Position numbers and translations under genes: made by a program
In this document: positions 26,124 to 64,000 of the stretch, piece by piece
Position numbering within the stretch: the stretch's first letter is position 1
Layout: every line of letters starts with the position of its first letter
DNA from: Acidimicrobiia bacterium
Lineage (GTDB): Bacteria; Actinomycetota; Acidimicrobiia; Acidimicrobiales; SKKL01
Assembly: GCA_041676705.1 (NCBI GenBank)
Contig: JBAYRL010000002.1
Span: 191,993-255,992 of the forward strand
Direction of reading: 5' to 3'
Length of the DNA: 64,000 nt
The notes under the pieces: model-generated
The model's input: only the letters and a program-made list of their open reading frames with translations
Database searches by the model: none
Told to the model about the DNA's origin: nothing

Positions 26124-28025
26124 TTACACGGCCTTCATCGGAAGCTTCGAACCGGGCGATAGCAACACGGCGGCTAAAGGGGGCAAGGTAAGCACCACCG
26201 ATTGGTAATAATCGTGACTGGGGATAGGAACCGAGTCGACACCACCCATATTGCCCACGCCGCTACCCCCATAAAGCTCGGAGTCGGTGTTGAGCAATTC
26301 AGCCCAATAGCCAGCCTTGGGTACCCCTAAACGGTAGTTCGAGCGAATAACAGGGGTCAGATTAAAGACCGCTAACACTGGCTCTCCGTCACGACCCAAA
26401 CGCAGGAAGGCCAACACATCAAAGTTAGTATCGTTGGCTTCGACCCACCGAAAGCCGTCGCCTACGCAGTCTTTAGAGTGCAAGGCGTCTTGTTCAAAAT
26501 AGGTTTGGTTCAAATCGCTGATAAGCCGGGCTAAACCATCATGTTTGGCATCATCTAACAAGCCCCAATTAACGGTACTTTCGTGGTTCCATTCACTGGT
26601 CTCACCAATCTCTCCGCCCATAAACAGCAGCTTTTTGCCGGGCTGAGACCACTGGTAGGCATACAGCATGCGCAGGTTGGCAAACTTTTGCCATCGATCA
26701 CCCGGCATTTTGTTTAATAGCGAGCCTTTGCCGTGCACCACCTCGTCGTGAGAAAGCGGCAGCGTGTAATTCTCACTATCAAAGTACACACCTCGGAAGG
26801 TGAGCTCGTGGTAGTGGTATTGGCGATGGATTGGTTCCCGTTCAAAATGTTTGAGCGTGTCATGCATCCAGCCCATGTCCCACTTGTAACCAAAACCCAA
26901 CCCGCCGGTATAGGTAGGCCGCGAAACCATGGGCCAAGCCGTAGATTCTTCGGCGAAGGTGGCTACATCGGGAAATTCCCCGTAAATGGCGGTGTTTAAC
27001 TCACGCAAGAACGCAATCGCGTCGAGGTTTTCTCGACCCCCAAACTCGTTCGGAATCCATTCTCCTTCTGAACGCGAGTAATCGAGGTAAAGCATTGACG
27101 CCACAGCGTCAACTCGAATGCCATCGACGTGATAGCGATCTAGCCAACACATGGCACTGGATATCAGAAACGATCGGACTTCATGCCGGCCATAGTTGAA
27201 AATCAGGCTGTCCCAATCGGGGTGATGACCCAAACGGGGATCGGAATGTTCATAAAGATGGCTTCCGTCGAAACGACCTAAACCATGGGCGTCATCAGGA
27301 AAATGTGAAGGCACCCAGTCGATGATCACTCCAAAGCCACGTTGATGCAGATAATCGACCAAGGCCATAAAATCTTGGGGCGTGCCGTAGCGGCTGGTAG
27401 GAGCGAAGTAACCCGTGGTTTGATATCCCCACGAGCCGTAGAACGGATGCTCGGTTACCGGCAACAGTTCTACGTGGGTGAAGCGAAAACGGTCCAGATG
27501 ATCAGCTAACGGTTTAGCCAGCTCACGATAGGTGGGGAAACGTCGATCTTTGGGTTGAAACCGTCCCCAGGAACCCAAATGCATTTCGTAAATCGAAACT
27601 GGAGCTTCAAGCGAAATGGTGTCGGCCCGTTTTGTTAACCAATCGGCATCGTTCCATTGGTAGTCAAGATCCCAAACTATTGAGGCTGTGCGGGGAGCTT
27701 CTTCAGCATAAACGGCCAGAGGATCAGCTTTTTCCAACACCTGGCCGTTCGACGCGACAATTGAAAACTTATAGGCGTCACCGTGTTGAACTGCTGGCAC
27801 AAATCCTTGCCAAATTCCCGAGGAGCCGAGCGGCGAAAGAGCGTTGCGATTGCCATGCCAGCCGTTGAAGTCTCCAATTACAGAAACCGATTGAGCGCTC
27901 GGTGCCCATACCCCGAACCAAGTCCCGGCCACTCCGTTTTGGGTTGCCAGATGTGCGCCCAGGTGGCGGTGCAAAAAGCGCTGCGTACCTTCGTTAAACA
28001 GATAGGTGTCGTCTTCGCTAATCAC
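26124..28025 (-). CDS. glgB: 1,4-alpha-glucan branching enzyme
   Basis: [44 protein letters not shown]. Confidence 0.96.
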
Positions 28026-30180
28026 TGGGTCCCTCCGGGGTCACCTCATTGCGGCTTGCGTCTAGCCTAGCTAGCGCCCTTCTAGTCGATGCCTTCGCCA
28101 GCTCCTTGCCCAGGTCACGGCTGAATTTGCGTCGCCAATTAGGGACTTCACGGTGGGTTCCGGGCACGTTTTGAGGCAGGTCTTCATGCCAAAGGTCTTC
28201 CGCGTTGACCAACACCACCTCAGCCTGACTAGCACCCAGCCATTCCAAACCTGCTTCAAAGGTTTCGACCAGGTTCGTAGAGACGTCTTCAGCAATCACC
28301 CAGTCCGCTTCGCGGTGCTGGGCTTCGCTTGGCTTTGCACCCAAGGCAGCGGAAAGGGCCGCCTTTTCTTTGGCGCGAAGCAAATGCTGCTTCGAAGCCT
28401 CGGCCTCACTGGTGAAACCCAGGTGCACCATCGTTTCAATGTCACGTCCGTGCCACCAGCCAGCAAACGTTGGCATGTCGTGGGTGTTAAAGCTTGCAAC
28501 GGAATCTATGGGGGGCGAGCGTAGGTAACCGTGTTGGTGGGCGAAGGCAGGCTCAAACTGAAGTTCATACATGCCCAGCATTCCCCAGCGGCGCATTAGC
28601 TCGTTGATTTCATCGCTAACGGTCCCCAGGTTTTCGCCTACCACCACGGCTTCGGCACGCCAAGCTTCAATGGCCACGATGGCCATGAGTTCATGCGATG
28701 GGTAACGCACATAAACACCCGTTTTCGCATCGTAACCAGGCGGGATCCACCACAGGCGTTCTAAAGACATCAGATGGTCGATTCTTAATAAACCGGCGTA
28801 GCGGAAATGGTGGCGAAGCGCGCCAATGAAGTCAACATAACGATTTTGTCGTGATCGGATGGGATGTGCCGGAGGGAAGCCCCAGTTTTGGCCACCGCTG
28901 AAAAGGGCGTCCGGTGGAGCCCCGGTGGCAACCTCGGCATAGGCCTGCGGGTTGCTCCAAACGTCATAGCCGTTGGGATTGGCACCCAAAGGCAGGTCTA
29001 ACGCCAGTATTTGACCTCGACCACGCAGCGATGCCGCCAAGTCACGAAGCTGGGTATCAGCTGCTAATTGAAAGTACTCATAACGACGCACCAGGGCTTC
29101 ATCAACCCGAAGGTGCTGAGCGCGGTGCCGTACGGCGTCAATTCCGTGTTGTTCGACGGCCGCTCGAAACCAGGCATAATCCTCAAGCTCAGGATTTTGC
29201 TTCCGAAAAGCTTGTAAACGTTGCTCAATAGCACTGTCACGGCCCAGGGTTTCAGCTATCAACGAATCCACCGTCGCATGCACCAGTGCCGCTGCTTCAC
29301 GGTATTGCACCAAAGGGTTGGCCGCTAGGTTTTCGACTTGGCGACGAACCCGGGCGCTAGCGAGCAAGCGAGCTGTCTGTGGAGCTTCCGCTAAACCTGG
29401 AAGCTGGGCTGGATCTAGATAAAGTTCGCTCCACCAACGGCGACTCAGCGGAGAATATGGGCTGGGCTCGTAAGGTTCTGAAAGATAGGTGGCCAAGAGC
29501 GGCAGAGTCGAAACCACGGTGGCCCCAAAGGTCTGGAACTGTTCGCCCAGCCGGTCGAGATCACTCAGGTTAGCTACTCCCAAGTGTGAAGTACCCGGCG
29601 CACCAGTTGGCGCCAGTGCGTAAAGCGGTGCGAAAACTCCCCATTGCCGAGAAGTCGCGAAACTCGGCAGCCGCGGTGGTGGGGCCAGAACAAGGGGGTT
29701 AAATTGCCTGCCACCAACCTCAATATGCGCTTCATGGTACCCGACCGCAAGGTTGGTGATGTTGGTCACCACAAAACGAGTTGTGGCCGTGTGACCCGCC
29801 AAGTGAATGCCCTCGTACGGTGGCACCTGATCGAGTGAAATCTGGTCACGATGGGTGGTGCCATCTTCGCAATGCACCTCAACGAAAATTTTTGTGCCCA
29901 CCGCTAACTCTCGGTCTAGGCGGAGTACAAAACCCAGCTTCTCGTGGGCGTTTACCACCAGAATTGGCTCAATAACCTGGCTAAATAGAAGTTGATCATG
30001 AGCGTTGATGGCCGTCTCAATTTCTTGTTCGCTCTGCGCTAAGCCCGAGAAGGTGCCAAGCGGAGCGCCTAGTTCAATTAGAACTTTCCATAGAGCCTCG
30101 GGCTGGGCGTGGTGCCACTTGCCAAAAATGTCGTGATAGCCGTTTTGCACACCCCAGCGTTGGGCCAGTTCATTTAGCAT
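28018..30180 (-). CDS. malQ: 4-alpha-glucanotransferase (amylomaltase)
   Basis: [51 protein letters not shown]. Confidence 0.9.
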
Positions 30181-32167
30181 TGACACCAGTTTCAGAACCT
30201 GCACTCAACTGCCTAAAGATCAAAATATGAGCAGGTGAAACATGAGGACGTAGTTCCACATAGTTGTCGGCACCCGACCAGTGGTAGGTCTCGGCACCCA
30301 GCAAATCAACCACCTCAAAAGGTTGGTTGGCATCAACGTTTAGCTGATCGAAATCGAGCGATATTACGCCAGCTTGGGTGTGGAACGAGTCAGTATTGAC
30401 CACCATTAACACCACGTCACCACTGTTGTCATCTCGTTTGGAATACGCCAATAACGCTTCGTTTGAGCTCTGGTGAAAATGCAGGTTCCGTAGCTGTTGT
30501 AGCGCAGGGTGATCACGACGGATCTGGTTGACCCGTTTAATAACCCCTCTTAGGTTGTAGGGGGCGTCGTAATCCCAAACTCGTTGCTGATATTTTTCAG
30601 AATTTAGGTATTCTTCGCTGCCCAGCGCCGCTGCTTGGGTTTCTACCAGTTCAAAAGCTGGTCCATAGATGCCATAGTTGGCGCTGAGTGTGGCTGCCAA
30701 AACTAGCCGTTGAATGAAGGCGGGCCGACCGCCAGTTTGTAGCTGCTCGGTAAGAATGTCAGGTGTGTTGGGCCAAGCATTGGGCCTAAAGAAATCTACG
30801 ACCGGTGAAGAACTCAACTCGGTGAAATAGTCGCGAAGCTCCCAGGCGCTATATCGCCAGGCAAAGTAGGTGTACGACTGGCTAAAACCAAGCTTGGCCA
30901 GGTGATACATAACCTTCGGTCGGGTGAAGGCTTCAGCCAGGAAGATGACCTCTGGTGTTTCAGAGCGAATAGTGGTGATTAGCCATTCCCAGAAACGAAA
31001 AGGTTTGGTGTGGGGGTTATCCACTCGAAAGATGGTGATGCCAGCCGCTACCCAAAACCGAACAACGTCAGCCAATGCGCCCCACAGTTCGGGCCAAGCA
31101 GCGGTTTCAAAATCAAGCGGGTAAATATCCTGATATTTTTTGGGTGGATTCTCGGCGTATTGAATCGTGCCGTCTGGTCGATGTTTAAACCACTCCGGGT
31201 GTTGGCTCACCCAGGGATGATCAGGCGAGCATTGAAACGCCAAATCGAGGGCCACTTCAAGATTCAAACTGGCGGCAGTGCGCACGAAAGCACCGAAGTC
31301 GTCCATGGTGCCCAACTCGGGATGGATTGCGGTGTGACCACCTTGGTCCGAACCAATGCCCCACGGGCTACCAGGATCGTCCGGTTCTGATTTGGTGGTG
31401 TTGTTCGGCCCTTTTCGAAAGGTAGTTCCGATGGGATGGATGGGCGGCAAATAGACCACGTCGAACCCCATATCGGCCACATACTCGAGATGTTTGGTGG
31501 CGTCAGCCAAGGTTCCGGGGCGTTGCAGTGTCGGCGAGGTGGAGCGTGGAAAAAATTCGTACCATGCACCGTGGGCAGCTCGAGCACGCTCAACCTCAAC
31601 GTGGATGACTTCACCAAAACGACCAATCGGTTCCCTGCTGGCCCAGCGACGCATTAACTGCTCGAGCTCGGGTTTCGCAAGCACGCTTAGATCACCCGAT
31701 TTCAGCCTCTTAGCTAGACGGCTCATCGCGGCACGATCATTGGCAAGAGCATGATTGGTGGCCATACCGACCAATTCGGCACCCACGGCGAGATCAGTCT
31801 TGGTAAGTTCACCAACCTCGTGTTTCTTATGGGCACCATCGAGCCACGAGGCAAAGCGATCTACCCAACCAACCACACTTATTGACCACCGTCCCACTTG
31901 GTTGAGTGGCACACGACCCACGAAACGATCATTTACCAAGGCCGACATTGAGATTTCACTGGTGGTGGTGCCACCAGGTGCCCGTACCCAAAGCGCTGCA
32001 CGGACCTCGTCATGACCATCAGCAAAGACGTCAGCTTCAATCTCTAAGGTCTCACCCACAACACGCTTGAGCGCGAACCTTCCACCGTCAACAATTGGTG
32101 ACACGCTTTCGACCACCACCCGAACAGGGTCTTTGGGGGCCATGGTCTGTGCTTGCGAGCTCGGCAT
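30170..32167 (-). CDS. glgE: Alpha-1,4-glucan:maltose-1-phosphate maltosyltransferase
   Basis: WYEFFPRS, YLPPIHPIG, ENPPKKYQDIYP, FRVDNPHTKP, AEAFTRP, NTPDIL. Confidence 0.96.
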   Translation of the reverse strand: MPSSQAQTMAPKDPVRVVVESVSPIVDGGRFALKRVVGETLEIEADVFADGHDEVRAALWVRAPGGTTTSEISMSALVNDRFVGRVPLNQVGRWSISVVGWVDRFASWLDGAHKKHEVGELTKTDLAVGAELVGMATNHALANDRAAMSRLAKRLKSGDLSVLAKPELEQLMRRWASREPIGRFGEVIHVEVERARAAHGAWYEFFPRSTSPTLQRPGTLADATKHLEYVADMGFDVVYLPPIHPIGTTFRKGPNNTTKSEPDDPGSPWGIGSDQGGHTAIHPELGTMDDFGAFVRTAASLNLEVALDLAFQCSPDHPWVSQHPEWFKHRPDGTIQYAENPPKKYQDIYPLDFETAAWPELWGALADVVRFWVAAGITIFRVDNPHTKPFRFWEWLITTIRSETPEVIFLAEAFTRPKVMYHLAKLGFSQSYTYFAWRYSAWELRDYFTELSSSPVVDFFRPNAWPNTPDILTEQLQTGGRPAFIQRLVLAATLSANYGIYGPAFELVETQAAALGSEEYLNSEKYQQRVWDYDAPYNLRGVIKRVNQIRRDHPALQQLRNLHFHQSSNEALLAYSKRDDNSGDVVLMVVNTDSFHTQAGVISLDFDQLNVDANQPFEVVDLLGAETYHWSGADNYVELRPHVSPAHILIFRQLSAGSETGVNAK

Positions 32168-40307: not shown

Positions 40308-43300
40308 CTATCGGGCGGCCACCACAATCGTGCGATACACCAAACGCCAACCATCGCCGTCAATACCCAGATCGGCCAGGCGTCGAGCGGCGTCAGCAGC
40401 GCTTAACGGGTCGGAAGTGCCGGCTGCCAAATGCGCTTCAGAGCGGGCCAAAGACACCAGGGCGCTGGCTACTTGATCATCGGTGGCGGCGGCCAGCGAG
40501 GCCGCCGAATCGAAGTGAGCGACGCCTTCTTCTGTGGTCCCGATTCCAAGCCACATGCTGGCTAAGGCCAAATGCGCCCAAATTCGATCGAGATAGGTGC
40601 TTTGCTCAGCGGCGAAAACCCGGTCGGCCGATTCAATTGCTTGGGCGTGGTCACCCACCATGGCATAAAGCAGCGCTAAGGCACTGAGCGCGTAACCGCT
40701 GGGGAATTCTTCGAGCCCCGAACTCACCGACTCGCGCAACCGTGCAAGTGCTACACCGGTGTCGCCCAATTGGGCTTTGGCCAGGCTAAAAGCCACCAAA
40801 CGGTCACCTTCGCCCACCACGGAAGGGTCGAGGCCATCCATGGTAATTAGGGCCAAATTTTGTAGGGCGCGTTTCGGATCACCGATGTATACCGCCGCGG
40901 CCGCGGCCGCCGTTGGGACCGATTCCACCGCACCGCCATGACAAAAGCGACGTTGTTCAATCGCTAGATCAATGGTTTTGAAACCTTCGCTGATGCGTCC
41001 CGCTGCGATTAGAGCCCGACCCAGCACACTGGCCGCTTGTAATTCACGCTCCAGGTCGCCAATACGCTTAAAGGTTTCAACAGCGTCATTAGCACGATCG
41101 ATCGAAGCCACGGAACGCCCGGTCCATAAACGCAATGAAGCCGTTAGCAATAGCATCATGGCTTCGGCCCAACGATCGCCACGTCCTCGGGCCTCAACCA
41201 GCATGCCTTCGCCTAAAGCTTCGGCTTCTTCCCATCGACCTTGGTGGAAGCGGACCCAGCCCTGTAACCCAGTGGCCCAACCGTAACCACCGCTGTCACC
41301 AATTTCAGCGAACTTTTCTAGTGACTCTTGGAGCTGGCGATCAGCTTCGCTGGGGCGTCCACTTTGAAAGGCGACCCAGGCCAGGTTCTGTAACGCCCAG
41401 GCTTCACCACGTTTATCGGCGATAGCACCAAAAACGTCGAGGGCAGCCGACATTGAGCTTCGGGCATCTTCCAGATTTCCGCTTAACAGTTCCACCATGC
41501 CACGCAGCCGGAGCGCTTCGGCCATGCCCGTCTTGTCATCTAAACGGCGGAATTCGTTTTCTGCCTCCACGAACGAGGCCAGTGCTTCTTCAACTCGACC
41601 TTCACGATCTTCGATCGAGCCGCGAACTAGCAAAGCTTTGGCCACCCCTGAGTCATCATCAAGGACGGTGCTAATGCTCATCGCCTCATCGACATCAGCA
41701 CGGGCTTCTTCCAACCAGCGCAGATCGGATCGGGCCCGACCCCGGCCCAGCAACAAGGTGGCACGCTGAGCGGTTGGCAGCGGCGGTGCTAACGCCACTG
41801 CCCGGTCATATAAACGTTCGGCCACTACTGGCACGGCGTTAGCTTCGGCGCGCCGAGCAGCTTCTATCAACCATTCCAGTGCTTCGCCCACGATGCTGGC
41901 CGGAATTCCAGCCACCCCGCCAAGCTCTTTGGCTAGCTGGGCCGCGGCTGCGAAGTGGTGAGCTAAAGCGTCAACAATGGCGTCGGAAACCCCGGTACCC
42001 CAGGTGTAATTGCGTTTGAGGAACTCACCGATGCCCCAATGCCGCAGTGCACGAGCGGCCTTGGTCATCATGGTGTAGGTAACGTCGCGCACCAGCTCAG
42101 TACGAAATGTGTACTCGGTACCTTCTTCGTTTAACACCAAAATGTCTTTTTCGGCCAAACCGCTCACGGCGGTTTCGACCTCGGTGCGTCCACGTCGGCC
42201 ATGACCAGCCCGGTCGGCTGCTGCCATAAGCACCAACGCTTCCACCGTGCCTTGACGGCCGTAGACCGCGGCGTCTTCCAGGGCACGGCGCTCAGGTTGG
42301 GTCAAACCGTCGAGGCGGGCCGCTACCAAACCCCGCAACGAATCAGGGAGCCGGTCGCCGTCGATTAACGAAGCCGGGTTCACGTGGCCAGGGCTATCGG
42401 AGACCAGGCCCATCAGCTCTTCTAAGAACAACGGGTTTCCAGCGCTACGTTCTAGCAGCACATCTTGAACTTCGGGGGCCATCCGATCGTCGGATAAGGC
42501 CTCGAGCAGTGTCCGGCTGGCACCACGGCCTAGGGGGTCGACGTTTACTACTAGTGAGTTATGTCGCCCATCGGCCGGTGCCCAGGATTCCCGGAAATGT
42601 GGTCTTTGTGTCGTTAGAAGGATGAAAGGCTTATCAACCAGACGTTCTAGCAACACGGCCAGCAGTTCTAAGACCGAACTTCCCGCCCAGTGGAGGTCGG
42701 CAATCACCATCATCACCGGTTTGAGTTCGAGGTAGGCCTCAAGAAAACGAACCAGTGAGCGAGCCACTTCTTCTCGGGCTCGACGCGGATCAATGCCCCG
42801 CAACGGACCGTCGAAGCCCATAAGGTGAACGATGCCGTTGGTGAGCCGCTCGACCTCACTTTCGGGCTTGGAATCGGGAGGAAACCCAAGGGTATCGACC
42901 AGAGTCTCTCGCAACCGTTGGCGCACCGTCGTTGGAGCGTCATTCATGGTGGCACCCACCGCGGTGCGAATAGCTTCGGCAATAGGCCACCACACATTGG
43001 CTTCGCCGTATGCCACCGCCCGACCTCGCCACACCAACGCTTCATGTCGCTGATGAGCAAAATCGCCAACCTCAAGCGCCAAGCGAGATTTGCCCACACC
43101 AGCATCACCGATAAGGGTCACCAGCAGGGCCTTGCGTCTCTCTACGACGGCATCAATGGCCTGTCCGATGAGGTCCATTTCACGGGCACGGCCAATGAGT
43201 GGGGTGCGGAATGCTTGTCGTCGATATCCAGGAGGAACTTCGGGGGCCAAAGCTCGCCACGCCGCCACCAAGTCGTCGCGGCCTTTAACCGTCAACGCCC

Positions 43301-43871
43301 CGACAGAATCGTATTTTATGGAATCCGCGGTGGCGCTATAGGTGGAGTTACCAACCCAAACTTCGCCTGGTACGGCGGCGTTTTGCAGCCGTGAAGCCGT
43401 GTTTACCACGTCGCCCATGGCGGTATAGTCGCCGCCAGCACGCAACGCCCCTGTCAACACTTCCCCGGTGTTGATTCCAATGCGCATTTGCACTGTCATC
43501 CCCAGGCGTTCCGACATTTTGGCGATCGTTTCTTGCATTCGTAGGGCCGCCCGAACAGCGCGTTCGGCATCATCTTCATGAGCCACCGGCGCTCCGAACA
43601 ATGCCAAAATCGCGTCACCCAAAATCTTGTCGACCCGGCCACCAAACGAACGAATGTCGTCTACCAAAGCCTCAAAGAGACGATCAATTAGGGCTTTGAC
43701 CTGCTCGGGGTCGCGGTTTTCGGCCATGCCCGTGTAGCCAACCAAGTCGGCAAATAAAACAGTGACCACGCGCCGTTCATCAATTTGAGCCACCAACTGA
43801 TGCCCACACGAAGGACAAAATCTGGCACCTTCGGGTGTTACGGCACCACATACTGGACAAGTCACCCTCAC
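40308..43871 (-). CDS. Zinc-ribbon + class III adenylate cyclase + STAND/AAA ATPase + TPR protein
   Basis: CPVC..CPSC; VLFADLVGYT, DKILGDA, RIGINTG, GDVVNTASRL; GDAGVGKS; TPR-like helical repeats. Start approximate. Confidence 0.9.
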   Translation of the reverse strand: MRVTCPVCGAVTPEGARFCPSCGHQLVAQIDERRVVTVLFADLVGYTGMAENRDPEQVKALIDRLFEALVDDIRSFGGRVDKILGDAILALFGAPVAHEDDAERAVRAALRMQETIAKMSERLGMTVQMRIGINTGEVLTGALRAGGDYTAMGDVVNTASRLQNAAVPGEVWVGNSTYSATADSIKYDSVGALTVKGRDDLVAAWRALAPEVPPGYRRQAFRTPLIGRAREMDLIGQAIDAVVERRKALLVTLIGDAGVGKSRLALEVGDFAHQRHEALVWRGRAVAYGEANVWWPIAEAIRTAVGATMNDAPTTVRQRLRETLVDTLGFPPDSKPESEVERLTNGIVHLMGFDGPLRGIDPRRAREEVARSLVRFLEAYLELKPVMMVIADLHWAGSSVLELLAVLLERLVDKPFILLTTQRPHFRESWAPADGRHNSLVVNVDPLGRGASRTLLEALSDDRMAPEVQDVLLERSAGNPLFLEELMGLVSDSPGHVNPASLIDGDRLPDSLRGLVAARLDGLTQPERRALEDAAVYGRQGTVEALVLMAAADRAGHGRRGRTEVETAVSGLAEKDILVLNEEGTEYTFRTELVRDVTYTMMTKAARALRHWGIGEFLKRNYTWGTGVSDAIVDALAHHFAAAAQLAKELGGVAGIPASIVGEALEWLIEAARRAEANAVPVVAERLYDRAVALAPPLPTAQRATLLLGRGRARSDLRWLEEARADVDEAMSISTVLDDDSGVAKALLVRGSIEDREGRVEEALASFVEAENEFRRLDDKTGMAEALRLRGMVELLSGNLEDARSSMSAALDVFGAIADKRGEAWALQNLAWVAFQSGRPSEADRQLQESLEKFAEIGDSGGYGWATGLQGWVRFHQGRWEEAEALGEGMLVEARGRGDRWAEAMMLLLTASLRLWTGRSVASIDRANDAVETFKRIGDLERELQAASVLGRALIAAGRISEGFKTIDLAIEQRRFCHGGAVESVPTAAAAAAVYIGDPKRALQNLALITMDGLDPSVVGEGDRLVAFSLAKAQLGDTGVALARLRESVSSGLEEFPSGYALSALALLYAMVGDHAQAIESADRVFAAEQSTYLDRIWAHLALASMWLGIGTTEEGVAHFDSAASLAAATDDQVASALVSLARSEAHLAAGTSDPLSAADAARRLADLGIDGDGWRLVYRTIVVAAR

Positions 43872-44011
43872 AGCATAGATGCCAAGCCCCAAGGTGACTC
43901 TGGTCACCTAGGCCTTTAATTCACCGTTACCAGGTCAGGCGCGCCTATCGTTAACCCCTTGGCATTATTAAACTCGCTCAAAGTCATGGTCCATAAGTTC
44001 GGAGTTGCCAG

Positions 44012-47457: not shown

Positions 47458-48276
47458 CTAGGCGAAGGTGACTTCATCGCCCACGTTTATGACACCAGCA
47501 CCGTTGACCGATGCATACGAACCAAGCGACGCAAACGTGCCCAACATAGAGGTCACCCGATTGTTACTAGCCAAAGTACGTAAAACCTCAGGCAGCGAAG
47601 CCAAGTCGCCTTGGGCCAAAGTCGGCATCACACAGCGTGGGGTAGGAACTCCAACTTCAATTTGAACCTCACCCAACTTCAGGGTGCGGCCTTCCCATTC
47701 ATTTTCGATAAACCCAGGGTCAGTGTTGGTATCAATTACCAAACTAGGGCGGAAACGTCGCAGATCGGTACCGGTTTCTGGTACCAGTTCGGCGAGCGCC
47801 GCCAGGCTAGCGGTAGTGATGAAGTGTAGTGCTGCCACATCAACAAAAGATGTGCCTTGGCCAGCCAGATTTACCGGAATGTCTACCGAACCTGCCAGCG
47901 ATAGGCCTTCAATTTCGGGCCAGTCAGAAGCGTAAACACCTTGTTGGGTCTGGGTCGCCAACTCAACCTTTACAGGACGGCCAAACAGTTCGCTTAAGGC
48001 CGTTTCTAACTTGGGGTCAACGACTGACCATTCAGACTTATCAGGCAAGGTTACCGTTACTTCACGGCCCACTCCCCGAGCCTGGCAGTTCAGTAGTTCA
48101 CGCCACAAACTTGGTCGCTTAGCACTGACGATTTTGTCGGTTTCTAGATCGCGCAATGCCCACGTGCGGTCACCGTCAATACCGCCTTCGTCTACCGGTA
48201 CCGATTGAAGAGCTTCACCTTGCATTGATTTGAAAGGGAATCGGTACAGGTGAGTGATGCGTCCAAGTGAGCTCAT
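47458..48276 (-). CDS. MOSC-domain protein
   Basis: LYRFPFKSMQGE, GIDGDRTWAL, RRFRPSLVI, TPRCVMPT. Confidence 0.88.
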   Translation of the reverse strand: MSSLGRITHLYRFPFKSMQGEALQSVPVDEGGIDGDRTWALRDLETDKIVSAKRPSLWRELLNCQARGVGREVTVTLPDKSEWSVVDPKLETALSELFGRPVKVELATQTQQGVYASDWPEIEGLSLAGSVDIPVNLAGQGTSFVDVAALHFITTASLAALAELVPETGTDLRRFRPSLVIDTNTDPGFIENEWEGRTLKLGEVQIEVGVPTPRCVMPTLAQGDLASLPEVLRTLASNNRVTSMLGTFASLGSYASVNGAGVINVGDEVTFA

Positions 48277-55995: not shown

Positions 55996-56709
55996 GTGAG
56001 CGATAGAGATGATCGCATGCCCCCAACACTCCTCAATCGCATCCATCTAAAGCAACACTCCCGTCGGGTTGTGATTGCGCTGGTTACCGCTGTTTTAACC
56101 GTGGCTTTGACGGCTTCTTGTAGCTCGGAACCCACCGCTCAAGCCGAGCCGCCAGAAGCGAACCCGATTCTGTTGGCAGAGCCCGCTCCACCCACCACTA
56201 CCACTACCGTTGCCGAGCCTGCGCTCCCACCTCTACCGGTACCGGAATTATTACCGCTTGAGCCCTACACCACGGATGAAATTCCAACGGTGGGACGCTT
56301 GTCGATTCCCGCGATTGGGCTCGACCAGCCTCTACAAGTAGGTATGACGTTGTCGGCGATCAACTTGGGGCCTAGCGTTTGGCCCGGTACCGCAGCACCA
56401 GGCCAGCTAGGAAACCTGGTAATCGCTGGTCATCGCACCACCTATTCCCGCCCATTCTTCGATCTTGATCTGGTTGAAGAAGGCACCGAAATGAACATTG
56501 AGACTGCTAACGGGGAAACTTTCACTTATGTAGCCACTGGCACCCAAATCGTCAATGAAGACGAGGTCTGGATAGCCGACCAAACCTATGGTTACACGGC
56601 GACTACCTTTGCTTGTCATCCAAAAGGTTCGTCTCGTCAACGTATCGTGGTGTTTTGGCAACTCCTAGACCAAGAAGGAAACCCGGTTCCGGCGCTGGAT
56701 GCTTCATAA
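55996..56709 (+). CDS. Class E-like sortase with lipoprotein-type signal
   Basis: GRLSIPAIGL, GNLVIAGHRTT (His), TTFACHP (Cys), RQRIVV (Arg); N-terminal SRRVVI..LTASC. Confidence 0.82.
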   Translation: MSDRDDRMPPTLLNRIHLKQHSRRVVIALVTAVLTVALTASCSSEPTAQAEPPEANPILLAEPAPPTTTTTVAEPALPPLPVPELLPLEPYTTDEIPTVGRLSIPAIGLDQPLQVGMTLSAINLGPSVWPGTAAPGQLGNLVIAGHRTTYSRPFFDLDLVEEGTEMNIETANGETFTYVATGTQIVNEDEVWIADQTYGYTATTFACHPKGSSRQRIVVFWQLLDQEGNPVPALDAS

Positions 56710-58192
56710 GTCAAAAACTCGACAACCCTTTAGCGTGGCCTTGGTTTGTATCTTGGCCGGGGCGGCCATTCTCAGTTCGCTACCGCCGTTTGGCTGGTGG
56801 CCGCTAGGCATTTTGGGTTTCGCTCTATTAGACGATCTGATTGCGAACACTCGGGCCCGGCAACGCTTCTTCCGCACCTGGCTGGTGGCCTTAACTTGGC
56901 TGAGCATGGGCATGATCTGGATGTGGGACATGACCGCACCGGGATACATGATCGCTGCTGTGCTCTATTCGGCCTATTTCGGAGTAGCCGCCATTTTCGT
57001 GCCCGGTGGCGCGGTGCGGCGCGTGGCTTTGCCAGGCGCTGTGGTCTTAGCCGAAGCGTTGCGGTGGTCGTGGCCCTTTGGGGGTGTGCCCTTGGCAACG
57101 GTGGCCCATGGCCAGGTGGGCGGACCGCTGGCTTCGGTGGTACGTCTAGGTGGCCCATTGGTGCTGGTGGCGATCACAGTAATTTGTGGTCAGGCGGTGG
57201 CATCGCTTGCACGTCGAGAACGTTTGGCGGCCTTCATCGGTTTCAGCATCGTTCTATTTACCCTCGGAATAGCCCAGTTGGTGCCAGGTACCAAAACCAT
57301 TGGGGCGTTGGAAGTGGCCATTGTGCAAGGCGGTGGACCCCAGCGCACCCGGGCTCAGGCCTCCGATGCTGAGGTGGTTTTCAACCGCCATCTGGAAGCT
57401 GCCGCCGCTATTGTCGACCCAGTCGATCTAATTGTGCTTCCCGAAAACGTTGTGCACGTGGACGACAATTTCCCTGAAACCCATGAAGCCGCCGCCTTGG
57501 GAGAACTAGCCCGTAAACACAACGCTCCGGTAATCGTGGGGGTCGTCGAGTCAACCTCTGGCCCAACTTGGAAGAACGCTGTTTTTGTTATTGATACTGC
57601 CGGTGAGGTGACCGACCGGTACGACAAAGTGCGGCGGGTACCATTCGGCGAGTTTGTGCCTCTGCGCACCATCATCGAAATGTTTTCGGGCGCGGTACCC
57701 GCTAAAGACGCTGCCATTGGGCAAACGCCAGCGTTAGTCACCGCAGCCGGGGTGCCTTTGGCTTCGCCTATTTCGTGGGAAGTGTTCTTTGCAGGACGAG
57801 CGCGTGAGGGGGTTCAGTTGGGGGCCGAAGCCATTGTGAATCCCACCAACGGGTCCTCCTACTGGTTGAGTTTCGTACAAAGCCAACAGATCGCTTCGTC
57901 TCGTTTGCGTGCTCTAGAAAATGACCGTTGGGTCATCCAGGCTGCTCCTACTGGGTTCTCAGCGTTGATCGCGCCGAATGGCCATGTGGTTGAGCGAAGC
58001 GCCATAAGTGAGCAAAAGGTGATTCAGGGATCGATCGAGCGGCGCGTGGGGCAAACCTGGGCCTCTCGGATGGGCGACCTGCCAGCAATTGCTGTGGCCA
58101 TGGCAGCAATATTGGTAGCCAACTTATTAAAAAACATGGATCAAAGCGGAGTTCGCAACTTGCTCATGGCCCGGCCGAAAACAGCGGCCTAG
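56699..58192 (+). CDS. lnt: Apolipoprotein N-acyltransferase
   Basis: Multi-TM; WPFGGVP; VQGG; VLPEN (Glu), YDKVRRVPFGE (Lys), PISWEVFF, TNGSSY. Confidence 0.9.
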   Translation: MLHKSKTRQPFSVALVCILAGAAILSSLPPFGWWPLGILGFALLDDLIANTRARQRFFRTWLVALTWLSMGMIWMWDMTAPGYMIAAVLYSAYFGVAAIFVPGGAVRRVALPGAVVLAEALRWSWPFGGVPLATVAHGQVGGPLASVVRLGGPLVLVAITVICGQAVASLARRERLAAFIGFSIVLFTLGIAQLVPGTKTIGALEVAIVQGGGPQRTRAQASDAEVVFNRHLEAAAAIVDPVDLIVLPENVVHVDDNFPETHEAAALGELARKHNAPVIVGVVESTSGPTWKNAVFVIDTAGEVTDRYDKVRRVPFGEFVPLRTIIEMFSGAVPAKDAAIGQTPALVTAAGVPLASPISWEVFFAGRAREGVQLGAEAIVNPTNGSSYWLSFVQSQQIASSRLRALENDRWVIQAAPTGFSALIAPNGHVVERSAISEQKVIQGSIERRVGQTWASRMGDLPAIAVAMAAILVANLLKNMDQSGVRNLLMARPKTAA

Positions 58193-58529: not shown

Positions 58530-59267
58530 CTAGCCCTTCAACACCCGAGGAGCACTGTTCATGGCTTGGGTATTTGGTAGGTGACGGACCACGCCTTCGC
58601 GCTCCAAAACCTCAACACTTCCCGGGTGCATTGCCAACACTGTTCCTACCAGTGAACGGTCAGGACCCAATTCAAACTCGACCCGGTCACCGGGGCGCAA
58701 AATACGCGCCAGATATCGGCCCGCCGCCAGCTCTTGGGCCACATGCTGTCCGCCTAAACCCACCAGCAAAGCAGCTGCGGTTACAACCCCAAAAACCAAT
58801 GCCGATACGGCTAACACCAGTAACAAGGTGTCCACACCAACCTGAGCCAAAGCCACAATCACTGCGGCCGCAGTAATAGCGGTTCTAACCAACAATCCAG
58901 CCTGTGACCGCAAGCGAGAGTATCCGCCAACCAGTCCCTGGCTAAGGGCGGCACCAGCGGCCAACGCCAAGGCCCTACCACCAACTAAAATTAGGGCCGC
59001 TGCAATATAGGCGGGTAGTTGGTCGGCAAACCACCGCGGCAAGTCTTCAAATGACTCTTCGTCCAGCACCGAACTGGCTAGCACCAAGCCCAAGACGGTG
59101 AGCACAACGAAAAATGATATGGCCATCGCTCTTGCTGAATCGTGGTACAGCCGATCGACATCACGGTCCTTGGTCAAGATGCGATAAATCAAACTGGCAC
59201 CCACCAGGCCAGCCACAACCCCCACCGCCACCAAGGCAATAGCTGCCGCCCACAGATCATCCATCAT
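58530..59267 (-). CDS. CmpX/MscS-like membrane protein (TM helices + MscS beta domain, no C-terminal alpha/beta domain)
   Basis: ALAQVGVDT, LLVGLGG..VAQELAAGRYL...LRPGDRV..GTVLAM...VEV..GVVRHLPN. Confidence 0.75.
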   Translation of the reverse strand: MMDDLWAAAIALVAVGVVAGLVGASLIYRILTKDRDVDRLYHDSARAMAISFFVVLTVLGLVLASSVLDEESFEDLPRWFADQLPAYIAAALILVGGRALALAAGAALSQGLVGGYSRLRSQAGLLVRTAITAAAVIVALAQVGVDTLLLVLAVSALVFGVVTAAALLVGLGGQHVAQELAAGRYLARILRPGDRVEFELGPDRSLVGTVLAMHPGSVEVLEREGVVRHLPNTQAMNSAPRVLKG

Positions 59268-59614
59268 TGTTCCCCTTCAATATTTCCGTCATTCGAGGTG
59301 TTCAAAATCACATCCAACATGCTCCACGGCAAGGCAAAGAGTTCGAGAAATCCCGAAAGGGCTTCTTGGTTTGCAATTCGATTTCGTAGTTGCCCTTGGT
59401 CTGCGATTATCGCTGTTTCTGGCTGGCTACGCGCCTGCGACAAGGCATTCGTCGCCGCCACATCTAGTTTGGAAAGATGGTCTAAGCGGTCTAAGCACAC
59501 TTCGCAGCGCAACAAATGTTGCCCAACCCGGCCTGGTCGCTCAGTTTCAAGCCAAAGGCTCAACGCCTCATCGTTCGGATGGCTTGATTGTGGGGATGGA
59601 TCTGGACCGCTCAT
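59264..59614 (-). CDS. Zinc-binding (ZAS-type) anti-sigma factor-like protein
   Basis: HPNDEAL...HLLRCEVC (H-x3-C-x2-C). ATG at 59614 overlaps the sigma stop. Confidence 0.7.
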   Translation of the reverse strand: MSGPDPSPQSSHPNDEALSLWLETERPGRVGQHLLRCEVCLDRLDHLSKLDVAATNALSQARSQPETAIIADQGQLRNRIANQEALSGFLELFALPWSMLDVILNTSNDGNIEGEQ

Positions 59615-60126
59615 TTCCACTCTTCCAGAATCGTTTGCAATTTACGGCGAGCTCGGAACAGTCGGGTTTTAACCGTTGGTAGTGGCAGGTTTAGCACTTC
59701 TGAAATCTCCTCGTAGCTCAAATCTGATATCTCACGCATCACTACAATCGAACGTGTTTGCGGATCAAGGCTCTCTAGCGCTGCCCAGAACCGCTCTACC
59801 GCCACTCGGTCATTCACCACGTCAGCCGTCGACCTATCAGAAGTGGCCACATTGGTGAGCGATTCTGGTGCCATTGGTTCGTCACGACGCTTGCGCAACA
59901 TGGAGATAGCTTGGTTTCGGGCGACTTTTAGCAACCAGGCCCGAGGTACGTCACCCTCTGGCCAACGGTCCATTGAACCCCAAGCCCGAAGCAACGTTTC
60001 TTGAACAACATCGTTCGCTAGGGCTTCATCACTCACAATCGAACGTGCCAGACGGTAAATATCAGTGCCGAACTGCTCAATTAGGCGCGCAAGTATCACA
60101 TTGGCGTCACTAAATGGCAGCGCCAC
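59611..60126 (-). CDS. ECF RNA polymerase sigma factor
   Basis: ANDVVQETLLRAW, RAWLLKVARN (region 2); LSYEEISEVLNLPLPTVKTRLFRAR (region 4). Confidence 0.93.
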   Translation of the reverse strand: MALPFSDANVILARLIEQFGTDIYRLARSIVSDEALANDVVQETLLRAWGSMDRWPEGDVPRAWLLKVARNQAISMLRKRRDEPMAPESLTNVATSDRSTADVVNDRVAVERFWAALESLDPQTRSIVVMREISDLSYEEISEVLNLPLPTVKTRLFRARRKLQTILEEWK

Positions 60127-60268
60127 AGGTGATTCATGATCGGTTCGATTAACAGGGTCTTTGGTGATCGGTTTTCTTATCGGTCGCTCGTGGTAACAAC
60201 TTAGGCCCTATACCGATGTACAGGTGCTACTTGACCACAGCGTTCTTGGACATAAGTCTTATTACCTC

Positions 60269-61528
60269 ATGTCTGATGCCCAGTCTCCGTTACGTATAGC
60301 CCTACTCGCCTATCGGGGTAAGCCCCACGTCGGTGGCCAGGGCGTATATATCCGCCATCTTTCCAAAGCCTTGGTTGACCTTGGGCACCACGTAGAAGTG
60401 TTGGGAGGCCAGCCCTACCCCGAGCTCGATCCACGAGTTCCTCTGGTGGAGCTCCCAAGCCTCGACATTTACAACGACCATTTTCCGATGCGTTTGCCAG
60501 GGCCGTGGGAGATTAAGGGTTTGGGTGACCTAGTTGAAGTCACCAATTTCATGTCAGGCAGTTTTCCCGAACCTCTAGCTTTTAGTGTGCGCGCCGCTCA
60601 ACATCTACGTCGCCGTACTGGTGAGTTCGATCTGGTACACGACAACCAATCTCTGGGTTATGGGCTATTGGCCATTGAAAAAATGGGGCTGCCGGTGCTC
60701 GGAACAATTCACCACCCCATCACAGTTGACCGGCGTTTAGAGATGGAACATGCTCGCAACGTTTGGACCCGTTTCTCCAAGTCGCGTTGGTACGCCTTCA
60801 CCAAGATGCAAACTCGGGTGGCTTCTAAGCTCACCCGCATCATCACTGTTTCTGAGTCTTCCTTTGGCGACATCACCAAAGACCACGACGTCGACCCCGC
60901 ACGGCTTCATGTAGTACCAGTTGGCGTTGACCCCGAATTGTTTAGGCCACTGCCGCACGTGCAACGAGTGCCGGGTCGACTTATCACCACTGCTTCGGCC
61001 GATGTGACCATGAAGGGTTTACGTTATTTGCTGGAAGCTTTGGCCGAATTACGAAAAACCCGAGATGTATCGCTTGTGGTTATTGGCAAGCCTAAACCGG
61101 GCGGACCTTCTGCTCACACCATCGATGAACTCGGCTTAACCGAGCACGTCACCTTTATTAGCGGGGTGCCCGATCAGCGAATTGTTGAACTTTACGCCGA
61201 AGCCGAGCTAGCCGTGGTGCCATCTTTATATGAAGGTTTCTCACTACCGGCCATTGAGGCTATGGCCAGTGGCGTGCCACTGGTAGCGACTACCGGCGGC
61301 GCGCTGCCCGAAGTTACCGGCGCGGCTGGCGAAACGTGTTTCCAAGTGGAACCCGGCAATTCAGTGGCTTTGGCGGCAGAGATAGCTCGGGCTTTAGATT
61401 CACCCGAAGCACGTGACCGTATTGGTGCTGCCGGACGTGATCGAGTTATAGAACGTTGGAGTTGGCGACACACAGCGGAAGCAACTGTGGAACAATACAG
61501 GGCGCTTCTAGAGGAATGGCCACGGTAG
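60269..61528 (+). CDS. manT: GT4 glycosyltransferase, MMP alpha-1,4-mannosyltransferase-like
   Basis: RIALLAYRGKPHVGGQGVY, GQPYP, FPEP..FS.RA, VHDNQ, HHPIT.DR, ASAD..KG, PSLYEGFSLPAIEAMASG; matches mycobacterial ManT as recalled from memory. Start ATG 60269. Confidence 0.82.
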   Translation: MSDAQSPLRIALLAYRGKPHVGGQGVYIRHLSKALVDLGHHVEVLGGQPYPELDPRVPLVELPSLDIYNDHFPMRLPGPWEIKGLGDLVEVTNFMSGSFPEPLAFSVRAAQHLRRRTGEFDLVHDNQSLGYGLLAIEKMGLPVLGTIHHPITVDRRLEMEHARNVWTRFSKSRWYAFTKMQTRVASKLTRIITVSESSFGDITKDHDVDPARLHVVPVGVDPELFRPLPHVQRVPGRLITTASADVTMKGLRYLLEALAELRKTRDVSLVVIGKPKPGGPSAHTIDELGLTEHVTFISGVPDQRIVELYAEAELAVVPSLYEGFSLPAIEAMASGVPLVATTGGALPEVTGAAGETCFQVEPGNSVALAAEIARALDSPEARDRIGAAGRDRVIERWSWRHTAEATVEQYRALLEEWPR

Positions 61529-62266
61529 ATGTTAACGGTTAGATATGAAGAACTGGGTTTGAACCCAGGTGAACGTTTGTTGGACTTGGGTTGCGGTTTC
61601 GGGCGGCACGCTTTTGAAGGCTTGCGGCAAGGGGCGACGGTGGTGGCATTCGACTACGCCTTGGAAGAGCTGAAACAGGTTCGAGCTACTTACGGTGCCA
61701 TGTATGAGGCAGGCGAGGTCCCAACTGGCGCAACCGCCGGGGCGGTGCGAGGTGATGCCCACCGACTACCGTTCCCCGATGCTTGTTTCGACCGGGTGAT
61801 CGCTTCGGAAGTAATTGAACATCTGCCCGACGATTCTTTGGCGGTTCGCGAACTGGCCCGGGTGCTACGACCCGGTGGCACCATTGCCATTACGGTGCCC
61901 GCCCGGTTCCCCGAAACTGTGTGTTGGAAACTTTCTGAGGAATACCACGCCCCAATTGCGGTTGGCGGACACCTTCGTATTTACCCCAAAAAGCAAATTA
62001 CCAACATGATGGAAAACGCTGGGCTAGCTCCGTATCGATCACATAAAGCCCACGCTTTGCACAGTCCGTATTGGTGGTTGAAATGTGCCGTGGGGCCCAC
62101 GAACGACGAGAATCAGGCTGTTAAGGCCTACCACAAGCTCTTAACCTGGGACATTATGAAGGCCCCTGCGATCACACGTCGCAGTGAACAGATCCTGAAC
62201 CCGCTCTTGGGTAAAAGCATTGCAGTTTATGCACGCAAACCAGTGAAGGAGAACGCGGGTGGGTAA
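61529..62266 (+). CDS. mtfA: Class I SAM methyltransferase, putative MMP 3-O-methyltransferase
   Basis: MLTV....LG..PG..LLDLGCG.GRH, ASEVIEH, VPARFPE.VCW.LS.EYH, GGHLRIY, HALHSPYWWLKCAVG; position in the cluster. Confidence 0.7.
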   Translation: MLTVRYEELGLNPGERLLDLGCGFGRHAFEGLRQGATVVAFDYALEELKQVRATYGAMYEAGEVPTGATAGAVRGDAHRLPFPDACFDRVIASEVIEHLPDDSLAVRELARVLRPGGTIAITVPARFPETVCWKLSEEYHAPIAVGGHLRIYPKKQITNMMENAGLAPYRSHKAHALHSPYWWLKCAVGPTNDENQAVKAYHKLLTWDIMKAPAITRRSEQILNPLLGKSIAVYARKPVKENAGG

Positions 62267-63389
62267 CGCTTCAATAACGGCCCCTGAGGTGGCGGGTCTC
62301 ATTACCTCTGCCGAGGTAAAAGCTACAGCCGAAGCCATCGCGGAATGGCAACTACCCAGTGGCATGATCCCCTGGACGCCGAACGGCCAGGCCGACGCTT
62401 GGAACCACACTGAAGCCGCGATGGCACTGTCGCGGGTAGGGCTAATATCCGAAGCCGAAGCCGCCTACAGCTGGCTGGAAGCCATGCAACGGCCCGACGG
62501 TTCTTGGCATCAGTATTATCTGCCTGACCGGGTGAAGCATCACAAGCTTGATGCCAACGTGTGTGCCTATGTGGCGGCCGGGGTTTGGTACCACTACGCC
62601 CTAACCAATGACCGTGGTTTCTTAGAAACTATGTGGCGTGTGGTCGAGCCCGCCATCGACTTCGTACTCGATTTGCAAACCCAACGGGGCGAAATTCTCT
62701 GGGCCCGTCACACCGATGGCACCCCCTGGCCTTTCGCCTTGCTCACCGGATCATCGAGCATTGCTCACAGTATTCGCTGTGCCATTTCTATTGCCCATGA
62801 ACTAGGCCATGAACGACCGGATTGGGAACTTTCCGCGGCACGATTGGCCCATGTTATCCGCAGCATTCCCGAAGCTTTTGAACCTAAAGAACGCTGGGCC
62901 ATGGACTGGTATTACCCGGTGTTAGCAGGCGTAGTTACTGGTGAAGCAGCCCGGCAACATTTGGCGCAACGCTACGACCAGTTTGTGATGGAGGGTAAGG
63001 GCATCCGTTGTGTGCACGACCGTCCGTGGATCACGGTGGCTGAAACCTGTGAAGGCACCATGGCACACCTCGCGGCTGGTGAGTTTGAAAAAGCTCGCGA
63101 GCTTTTCAGCTGGATTGCTTCCCAACGTACCGCCGATGGCCGCTACTGGACCGGTACCGTGTACCCCGACGAGGAGCGTTTCCCCGCCGCCGAACAAAGC
63201 ACCTATACCGCAGCCGCCGTGGTGCTAGCAGCAGACGCTTTAGACGGCACGAGCGCCGCTTCAACCATGTTCACTACCAATGAGGTCATTGCTTCTTTGG
63301 TGGAGTTCGAATCGGTGGAATCTATCGAATCGGGCGACACTTCGGGGCCGACTAAGACCGTGGAGTCGATCGCTGAAGCTACTGATTAG
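62259..63389 (+). CDS. mmpH: (alpha/alpha)-barrel protein, putative MMP hydrolase
   Basis: Q.PSGMIPW, D.WNHTEAAMAL, Q.PDGSW, DANVCAYVAAGVW, RWAMDWYYPVL, WITVAETCE; position in the cluster. Confidence 0.7.
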   Translation: MGNASITAPEVAGLITSAEVKATAEAIAEWQLPSGMIPWTPNGQADAWNHTEAAMALSRVGLISEAEAAYSWLEAMQRPDGSWHQYYLPDRVKHHKLDANVCAYVAAGVWYHYALTNDRGFLETMWRVVEPAIDFVLDLQTQRGEILWARHTDGTPWPFALLTGSSSIAHSIRCAISIAHELGHERPDWELSAARLAHVIRSIPEAFEPKERWAMDWYYPVLAGVVTGEAARQHLAQRYDQFVMEGKGIRCVHDRPWITVAETCEGTMAHLAAGEFEKARELFSWIASQRTADGRYWTGTVYPDEERFPAAEQSTYTAAAVVLAADALDGTSAASTMFTTNEVIASLVEFESVESIESGDTSGPTKTVESIAEATD

Positions 63390-64000
63390 GCTTAATACGT
63401 TTTAACACCCGCAACGAGCCCGTAACTGAAATTTCGTGAAAAGCACCCGAGTTGATGGCTCGTAAGTAAATCTCATAGGGCGGACGGCCACCGTCCTTGG
63501 GGTTCGGGAAGACGTCGTGGATGGCAAGTGTTCCGCCTATGGCCACATGGGGTACCCAGGTTTCATAATCGCGATGAGCCGGTTCGGTGCCGTGGCCGCC
63601 ATCGATAAACAGGAACCCTAACTGGGTCGTCCAGTATCGGCCCACGGTGGGAGAATCACCCACTATCGCCACCACAAAGGGCTCTAGTTCGGCCTGGTAA
63701 AGGGTGCGGCGGAACGTGGGTAAGGTGTCGAGCTTGTTAATAGTGTCGTCGACCAAGTCGGGTTCGTGCCATTCCCAGCCCACCTGGTTTTCTTCGGATC
63801 CCCGGTGATGATCGAGAGCAAAAAGCACGGTTTGGCGTTCTTTGGCGGCTGTGCCCAGATAAATGGCCGATTTTCCGCAGTAACTGCCAATTTCTAAGAA
63901 TGGACCGGCCTCGGCTTCAACCGCAGCTTGATAAAGCGCCAAACCTTCGTCGGTGGGCATAAAACCACGGGCCGCTTCGGCAGCTTGGCGTGCGGCTTCG
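63379..64000 (-). CDS. meT1: MMP 1-O-methyltransferase-like (start lies beyond the right window edge)
   Basis: Frame stays open to the edge (..EAARQAAEAARGFMPTDEG); EIGSYCGKS, DHHRGSEE, DTLP, FIDGGH, HDVFP.PKDGG.PP. Confidence 0.8.
   Translation of the reverse strand, partial: EAARQAAEAARGFMPTDEGLALYQAAVEAEAGPFLEIGSYCGKSAIYLGTAAKERQTVLFALDHHRGSEENQVGWEWHEPDLVDDTINKLDTLPTFRRTLYQAELEPFVVAIVGDSPTVGRYWTTQLGFLFIDGGHGTEPAHRDYETWVPHVAIGGTLAIHDVFPNPKDGGRPPYEIYLRAINSGAFHEISVTGSLRVLKRIKPNQ

Follow-up and report, generated by a model that had tools for sequence, protein, structure and literature searches.

A probable Acidimicrobiia counterpart of the mycobacterial methylmannose polysaccharide gene cluster

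Introduction

Is methylmannose polysaccharide (MMP) a speciality of mycobacteria, or are the genes for such a polymer also carried by other actinobacterial classes? The question is raised by a 64,000-nucleotide stretch of DNA (the window; contig JBAYRL010000002.1, positions 191,993 to 255,992, assembly GCA_041676705.1) from a bacterium of the class Acidimicrobiia. Positions 60269-64000 of the window are taken up by four tightly packed open reading frames (ORFs), manT, meT3, mmpH and the convergent meT1, which an earlier note, made from the sequence without database searches, had read as a complete MMP-type locus. The comparisons described below bear out most of that reading. The four genes very probably correspond, in Acidimicrobiia, to the mycobacterial MMP cluster, and their products would synthesize and recycle a cytoplasmic alpha-(1->4)-linked 3-O-methylmannose oligo- or polysaccharide or a close variant of it.

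MMP binds acyl-coenzyme A thioesters (acyl-CoAs). In its canonical form it is a 3-O-methyl-alpha-(1->4)-mannan 11-14 units long with a 1-O-methyl cap. To our knowledge mycobacteria are the only organisms from which it has been isolated, apart from Streptomyces griseus, the source of an acetylated form. Its function has so far been discussed almost wholly through mycobacterial fatty-acid synthesis and cold adaptation; an M. smegmatis mutant in mmpH shows slow growth at 15 degrees C. Ripoll-Rozada 2019 and Maranha 2023 are cited for the mycobacterial MMP cluster. A survey of mycobacteria and eight related actinobacteria reported, in its main text, homologues from genera of Actinomycetes only (PMC9883506, Maranha 2023). 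The ConSurf alignments in Figs S7 and S10 of the same paper include, without comment, entries labelled Acidimicrobiia-like, Iamia, Ilumatobacter, Deltaproteobacteria, Desulfobacteraceae and Gammaproteobacteria. For Nocardia otitidiscaviarum the paper's wording is "not known to synthesize MMP", which contradicts the statement in the earlier note that MMP had been reported in Nocardia. No paper joining methylmannose and Acidimicrobiia was found in the literature as far as it could be searched. The sequences, and even an MMP label for one of them, are already public, yet within the same searchable literature a complete conserved MMP cluster in Acidimicrobiia is stated nowhere.

Organization and identity of the four genes

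The first gene, manT (60269-61528, plus strand), encodes a predicted 419-amino acid GT4 (GT-B) alpha-(1->4)-mannosyltransferase orthologue. Its ORF extends, still open, upstream as far as a GTG at 60224; translation probably starts at the ATG at 60269, because the equivalent methionine begins the 419-amino acid gene call in the closest relative, locus L083. The first base of meT3 (61529-62266, plus strand) directly follows the manT stop codon. Its 245-amino acid product is a class I S-adenosylmethionine-dependent methyltransferase (Pfam Methyltransf_11) and an orthologue of the putative MMP 3-O-methyltransferase pMeT3. The start of mmpH (62259-63389, plus strand) overlaps the end of meT3 by 8 nucleotides, and the gene encodes a 376-residue (alpha/alpha)6-barrel protein, a predicted MMP endo-alpha-(1->4)-mannosidase orthologue. 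These start/stop overlaps suggest that manT, meT3 and mmpH form one operon; a promoter and terminator scan of 59500-64000 gave nothing above shuffle expectation. The fourth gene, meT1, lies on the minus strand from 63379 to beyond 64000, encodes a Methyltransf_24 protein that would be an MMP 1-O-methyltransferase, and shares 11 nucleotides (63379-63389) with the convergent mmpH. The unit of a GT4, a methyltransferase and an alpha/alpha-barrel gene facing a methyltransferase gene across an 11-nucleotide overlap is thus found in the ORFs where it had been described. As for completeness, all four genes are there, but the meT1 frame is still open at base 63999 and the gene is clipped by the window end. 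The loss amounts to about two N-terminal codons, residue 7 of the 208-amino acid L083 homologue aligning with residue 5 in the window.

Three of the proteins match structures in the PDB by wide margins, far beyond chance. The best match of ManT is 7qsg, the Mycobacterium hassiacum ManT, with an E value of 6e-126 against 1e-20 for the runner-up. The sole match of MmpH is 7qsj, entitled "Methylmannose polysaccharide hydrolase (MmpH)" (E 5e-104), and the matches of MeT1 are limited to 6g7d, 6g80 and 6h40, all M. hassiacum MeT1 (E 1e-67). In BLASTP comparisons with the M. hassiacum PDB chains the identities are 52% for ManT, 50% for MmpH and 54% for MeT1. MeT3 has no close relative in the PDB, the nearest structures being sugar and natural-product O-methyltransferases.

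For MeT3 the mycobacterial locus itself is informative. The comparison locus, from Mycolicibacterium agri (L081), was found through a homologue of M. hassiacum MmpH, and its genes stand in the order ManT, pMeT3, MmpH and then, on the opposite strand, MeT1, which is the arrangement in the window and also that of the M. hassiacum cluster MHAS_04402-04405 (PMC9883506, Maranha 2023). Over nearly their full length the window proteins are 50% (ManT), 53% (MeT3), 47% (MmpH) and 54% (MeT1) identical to those of the M. agri cluster; for MeT3 and the M. agri gene in the same position the alignment covers 244 amino acids with an E value of 5e-90. In a reverse search, along the lines proposed in the earlier note, the mycobacterial proteins, run against the whole window, returned these four genes as their best matches. 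The only further match was a glycogen-synthase-like GT4 gene at 21414-22610, with 27% identity, and the M. agri pMeT3 protein matched meT3 alone.

MeT1 shares with its M. hassiacum homologue the motif blocks GFMPxDEG, YCGKS, DHHxGSEE, FIDGGH and HDVFPxPKDGG. The motifs on which the earlier note relied, GFMPTDEG, YCGKS, DHHRGSEE and HDVFPNPKDGG, all lie in meT1 and align with GFMPADEG, YCGKS, DHHHGSEE and HDVFPDPKDGG in 6g7d. Of the enzyme names it had given, ManT, MmpH and MeT1 stand; MtfA does not, the second methyltransferase being pMeT3 in the literature.

Domain databases say less, as had been anticipated for automated annotation. Pfam gives generic domains for the GT4 protein and both methyltransferases and no significant domain for MmpH, and no NCBIfam model reaches its cut-off for any of the four proteins, so that the assignment rests on the PDB and locus comparisons. 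The weak NCBIfam scores, 51 bits for TIGR01577 "oligosaccharide amylase" (cut-off 821) and 102 for MshA (cut-off 462), arise because MmpH and ManT are fold-level relatives of those families. Database names of MmpH relatives are mostly "prenyltransferase", which is misleading. The Joint Genome Institute (JGI) name for one relative, 67% identical to the window MmpH, is "MMP endo-(1,4)-3-O-methyl-alpha-D-mannosidase".

If the activities are as in M. hassiacum, ManT would add mannose from GDP-mannose, in alpha-(1->4) linkage, to methylated oligomannoside primers, and MeT3, as proposed for pMeT3, would methylate the 3-OH of the new units, while MeT1 would cap the free 1-OH at the reducing end (PMC9883506). 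MmpH would then cut mature chains internally into oligomannosides that prime daughter chains, a cycle termed "partially conservative replication" (PMC9883506). The products described for the M. hassiacum MmpH are 1-O-methylated tetra- and pentamannosides, and hepta- and octamannosides with a free reducing end (PMC9883506).

Functional residues of ManT and MmpH

Residue roles established in M. hassiacum (PMC9883506) were read off alignment columns for ManT and MmpH; MeT1 was assigned by identity and motif blocks. The window ManT keeps G15, H142, K240, D293, E313, G314, F315, L317 and E321. Mutagenesis has shown that K240, E313 and E321 are needed; D293 contacts guanine, H142 lies on the acceptor side, and L291, which is valine in the window, makes a main-chain contact (PMC9883506). 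Among 69 Acidimicrobiia homologues each of the retained residues is shared by 68-69, with the exception of D293, which is glutamate in 21.

In MmpH, residues D47, W49, N101, T163, M215, Y219, E262 and E265 are invariant among 120 Acidimicrobiia-type and 120 mycobacterial sequences; the base E262 and the putative acid D47 are thus present in 240 of 240. Three positions divide the two groups without exception: all 120 Acidimicrobiia-type sequences have N50, V, T or C at 102, and Y315, and all 120 mycobacterial sequences have D50, F102 and W315. The window protein has N50, V102 and Y315, so that five of the eight residues lining the substrate subsites (W49, D50, N101, F102, T163, M215, Y219, W315) are identical to those of M. 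hassiacum.

The structural work, in which D50A strongly lowered the activity of the M. hassiacum enzyme, did not decide between D47 and D50 as the catalytic acid (PMC9883506). A wider survey drew on 50%-identity cluster representatives that cover all key MmpH positions, aligned with MAFFT. Among them N50 is the commoner state, D47, E262 and E265 are nearly invariant, and N50 pairs with either F102/W315 or V102/Y315, several combinations being found. The idea that D50N marks the loss of a catalytic residue was rejected on these grounds. The substitution would instead be a natural subsite variant that leaves room for a different fine structure of the substrate, and the frequency of N50 beside a nearly invariant D47 favors D47 as the catalytic acid. 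The clade-specific differences suggest that the product in Acidimicrobiia may be a variant of MMP. Such a subsite signature deserves the attention of enzymologists.

Host and distribution of the cluster

There is no rRNA gene within the 64-kb window, and the host was judged from other evidence. The chorismate synthase gene aroC (13930-15015) has as its best named match that of Actinomarinicola tropica, with 81% protein identity, and the other named matches are almost all from Acidimicrobiia or from metagenome-assembled genomes (MAGs) of Acidimicrobiales. A. tropica belongs to the Iamiaceae, order Acidimicrobiales, class Acidimicrobiia. The four genes and at least eight flanking genes are syntenic with Acidimicrobiales genomes. 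The flanks are collinear with L083 through genes for Lhr, a Cof-type HAD protein, a UvrD-like helicase, a sortase, Lnt, a membrane protein, a small protein and an ECF (extracytoplasmic function) sigma factor, and part of this order is shared with L002, L005 and the A. tropica chromosome (L089). Taken together, AroC and the flank synteny point to an uncultured Acidimicrobiales bacterium near Iamiaceae, in keeping with the class proposed in the earlier note; MMP production is not known from the order Acidimicrobiales. Members of the class are abundant in soil, sludge, marine sponge, freshwater and landfill samples. Two landfill metagenomes contain the exact sequence, in contigs about 99.7 kb long, and near-identical sequence occurs in runs from leachate, digester, biofilm, sludge and soil.

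The cluster is common in Acidimicrobiia and no rarity. A genome scan gave at least 600 stretches, of which at least 593 were confirmed relatives, and the best 80 loci (L001-L080), in species-representative genomes with an MmpH relative, formed the comparison set. When the four window proteins were compared with these loci by tblastn, 68 had the complete set, arranged and oriented as in the window, and most of the remaining 12 are cut by contig ends. The labels of these best 80 genomes are nearly all Acidimicrobiia, Acidimicrobiales or member families, and carriers of the cluster include genomes labelled Iamiaceae, Microthrixaceae, Acidimicrobiaceae and others. A full cluster, 72-85% identical to that of the window, is also present in the complete genome of the cultured A. 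tropica (CP045851.1, at about 3.169-3.174 Mb). In one locus (L018) a gene inserted between mmpH and meT1 was considered as an additional pathway member and rejected, its product being Ser/Thr-kinase-like.

Beyond this set, MmpH has over 6,900 matching proteins (90% clustering) at E<=1e-10 and matches 346 clusters at 50% identity at E<=1e-30. Four of five divergent representatives that were inspected (33-48% MmpH identity) keep GT4, Methyltransf_11, MmpH and Methyltransf_24 genes together. In L087 and L088 the order is manT-meT3-mmpH with a convergent meT1, as in the window, and in L086 meT1 lies upstream of manT in the same direction. In a Thermodesulfobacteriota MAG (L084 1-2703; JBHPCL010000023.1) a meT3-like and an mmpH-like gene (43%) are followed by a gene for a hexapeptide-repeat acyltransferase, the contig ending upstream; this locus may represent an acylated polymer variant. 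Outside Actinomycetota the evidence comes from a single protein of this Thermodesulfobacteriota MAG, from two MAGs with odd labels and from the organism names given in Fig. S7 of PMC9883506.

The cluster is under purifying selection. Against L083, whose proteins are 84-90% identical to those of the window cluster, dN is 0.07-0.12 and dS is saturated. The only possible trace of transcription is a 271-nucleotide contig from a sludge RNA-seq run that matches meT3 (61748-62018) with two mismatches. A claim of expression from this contig was rejected as too thin, given that the library can contain DNA.

Competing explanations

What could make the interpretation of the four genes as an Acidimicrobiia MMP cluster wrong? 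Several points weigh against it. The substitutions D50N, F102V/T/C and W315Y stand at the MmpH substrate site in every Acidimicrobiia-type sequence, and since D50A strongly lowers the activity of the mycobacterial enzyme, the substrate or the product of MmpH may differ in Acidimicrobiia. The activity of pMeT3 is only putative even in mycobacteria (PMC9883506), the enzyme specificities and the product in Acidimicrobiia are read across from the mycobacterial system, and transcription evidence comes down to the one RNA-seq contig. One alternative is that the same set of enzymes makes a chemically distinct polymer, with another methylation pattern, chain length or acylation, as in the acetylated MMP of S. 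griseus. The clade-wide N50, V/T102 and Y315 against D, F and W in mycobacteria, the several residue combinations among the 50%-identity representatives, and the acyltransferase gene directly after mmpH in the Thermodesulfobacteriota MAG all speak for this alternative. On the other side, N50 also occurs with F102 and W315 in other lineages and would thus be a common family state rather than a special mark, ManT retains its donor-site residues, with D293 that contacts guanine among them, as well as H142 on the acceptor side, MeT1 and MeT3 resemble their mycobacterial counterparts (53-54%) as closely as ManT does, and the window locus has no acyltransferase gene. A distinct polymer is for these reasons considered unlikely, though it is the alternative that most deserves to be kept in mind.

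Two other explanations carry much less weight. A recent horizontal acquisition from Mycobacteriales or Streptomyces, which would make the cluster uninformative on the biology of Acidimicrobiia, gains something from the patchy occurrence of the MMP family across mycobacteria and from homologues in unrelated phyla, which imply transfer somewhere in its history. It is nevertheless very improbable for this locus: the nearest relatives of all four proteins are from Acidimicrobiia (65-85% identity, against 47-54% for mycobacteria), the cluster and the window have the same G+C content (0.559), the neighborhood is conserved in the class, and the cluster occurs across several of its families. Scarcely credible is a group of unrelated generic glycosyltransferase, methyltransferase and "prenyltransferase" genes, or a catabolic locus for foreign mannans. 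The generic Pfam and NCBIfam matches, with no family-specific model at its cut-off, and the prevailing database names would allow it. The high-scoring, specific matches to characterized MMP enzymes with conserved catalytic residues argue against an unrelated generic group, and two methyltransferases beside a GDP-sugar transferase indicate biosynthesis; the N-terminus of MmpH, read directly, does not resemble a signal peptide, and the unit contains no transporter gene.

The interpretation as an Acidimicrobiia MMP cluster is preferred over these alternatives. An ancient origin, as the earlier note suggested, would fit the occurrence throughout the class and the conserved neighborhood, and the four-gene module in divergent lineages together with MmpH homologues outside Actinomycetota leaves room for horizontal spread. 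A role in the handling of acyl-CoAs and fatty acids or in cold adaptation would follow by analogy with mycobacteria.

Genomic neighborhood

Divergent from manT is a gene for an ECF sigma factor (59611-60126, minus strand; Pfam Sigma70_r2/r4_2). It is apparently co-transcribed with a putative anti-sigma gene of 118 codons (59264-59620, minus strand) and a gene for a 245-amino acid membrane protein (58530-59267, minus strand), both of which have no Pfam match and were assigned by position. Only the closest relatives (L083, L002, L005 and A. tropica) have this trio in the same position, and it may give the cluster a lineage-specific stress control. Further upstream, the gene for apolipoprotein N-acyltransferase (Lnt; 56699-58192, plus strand; Pfam LNT_N and CN_hydrolase) serves as a synteny marker and is not taken as a pathway member. 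An Lnt homologue lies upstream of manT in 49 of the 80 Acidimicrobiia loci, and this anchor argues for vertical inheritance of the region. A MOSC-domain protein is encoded at 47458-48276 (minus strand) in the window, and 31-39% identical homologues stand directly upstream of manT in 12 related loci (for example L021 5144-5890).

What lies on the other side of meT1 falls past the window end and is known from the loci of relatives only. A gene for a small membrane protein of the GtrA family adjoins meT1 in 56 of the 80 loci; examples are L083 11750-12226 and L089 8738-9235, and one is also found in the divergent L086 (1188-1844). In 57 of the 80, and in A. tropica (L089 9292-10152), a gene for a TesB-type acyl-CoA thioesterase (PF02551/4HBT_3) occurs 0.5-3.9 kb beyond meT1, usually separated from it by the GtrA-like gene alone. 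Since MMP binds acyl-CoAs, this neighbor is suggestive of a lipid role; it could equally be inherited synteny.

Elsewhere in the window, 15016-32167 holds an alpha-glucan block with phosphorylase-like, GT4 glycogen-synthase-like (the gene at 21414-22610 mentioned above), GlgC, GlgX, GlgB, MalQ and GlgE genes, which together form a GlgE-pathway locus such as is typically found in Actinomycetota. A type I restriction-modification system lies on the minus strand (HsdS 1405-2628, HsdM 2625-4652), adjoined by a 500-amino acid ORF with no Pfam match (4738-6240). A protein of 1199 amino acids (40308-43907, minus strand) combines a zinc ribbon, an adenylate/guanylate cyclase domain, an AAA_16 ATPase and TPR repeats, and looks like a large LuxR/MalT-like STAND signalling protein minus the DNA-binding end.

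Significance

As judged from the comparisons above, an orthologous MMP-type cluster is present, and common, in a class for which an MMP cluster has been undescribed, and the polymer is probably far less specific to mycobacteria than the literature implies. An intact, conserved cluster in dozens of Acidimicrobiia species would shift the question of MMP function to a quite different lipid biology, and because one carrier species is in culture with a complete genome, the question is directly testable. The practical gain is modest: better annotation, and natural active-site variants of MmpH for enzymology. A bolder proposal can be put forward only tentatively, being rather doubtful as a whole. A cytoplasmic polymethylated mannose polymer might be widespread in bacteria, made through a mobile or ancient four-gene module in Acidimicrobiia, other Actinomycetota and some other phyla. 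MmpH of the N50/Y315 type would then mark a chemically distinct variant, and the Acidimicrobiia polymer, with the neighboring TesB, would buffer acyl-CoA, fatty acid synthase I (FAS-I) and mycolate biology playing no part in this.

Comparison with known systems

At the level of the fold, MmpH is related to the (alpha/alpha)6-barrel glycoside hydrolases of GH15 and GH125 (clan GH-L), and ManT to the GT4 enzymes PimA and MshA (PMC9883506). The similarity of the window proteins to these families is far below the family cut-offs, and MmpH differs from them in that it would act internally on a methylated alpha-(1->4)-mannan. Methylglucose lipopolysaccharide (MGLP) is the other cytoplasmic polymethylated polysaccharide that has been proposed to bind acyl-CoAs and to modulate fatty-acid synthesis (PMC9883506). 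MGLP is analogous to MMP in function but differs from it in its sugar, 6-O-methylglucose, and in its genes, which are unrelated.

S. griseus makes an acetylated MMP with a ManT 53% identical to that of M. hassiacum (PMC9883506). The window ManT is equally distant from the M. hassiacum enzyme (52%), and both hosts are non-mycobacterial actinobacteria; the S. griseus polymer is acetylated, whereas the window locus is without an acyltransferase gene.

From the mycobacterial cluster (M. hassiacum MHAS_04402-04405; M. smegmatis MSMEG_6481-6484) the window locus differs in having N50, V102 and Y315 in place of D, F and W in MmpH and V291 in place of L in ManT. Its neighbors differ as well: the M. 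agri cluster is flanked by TetR and cytochrome P450 genes, the window cluster by ECF sigma factor and Lnt genes, to which relatives add GtrA and TesB. The host is of a different class, Acidimicrobiia, for which we know of no mycolic-acid biology. Across this distance the two clusters share gene content and gene order, including the convergent meT1, and their four proteins are 47-54% identical.

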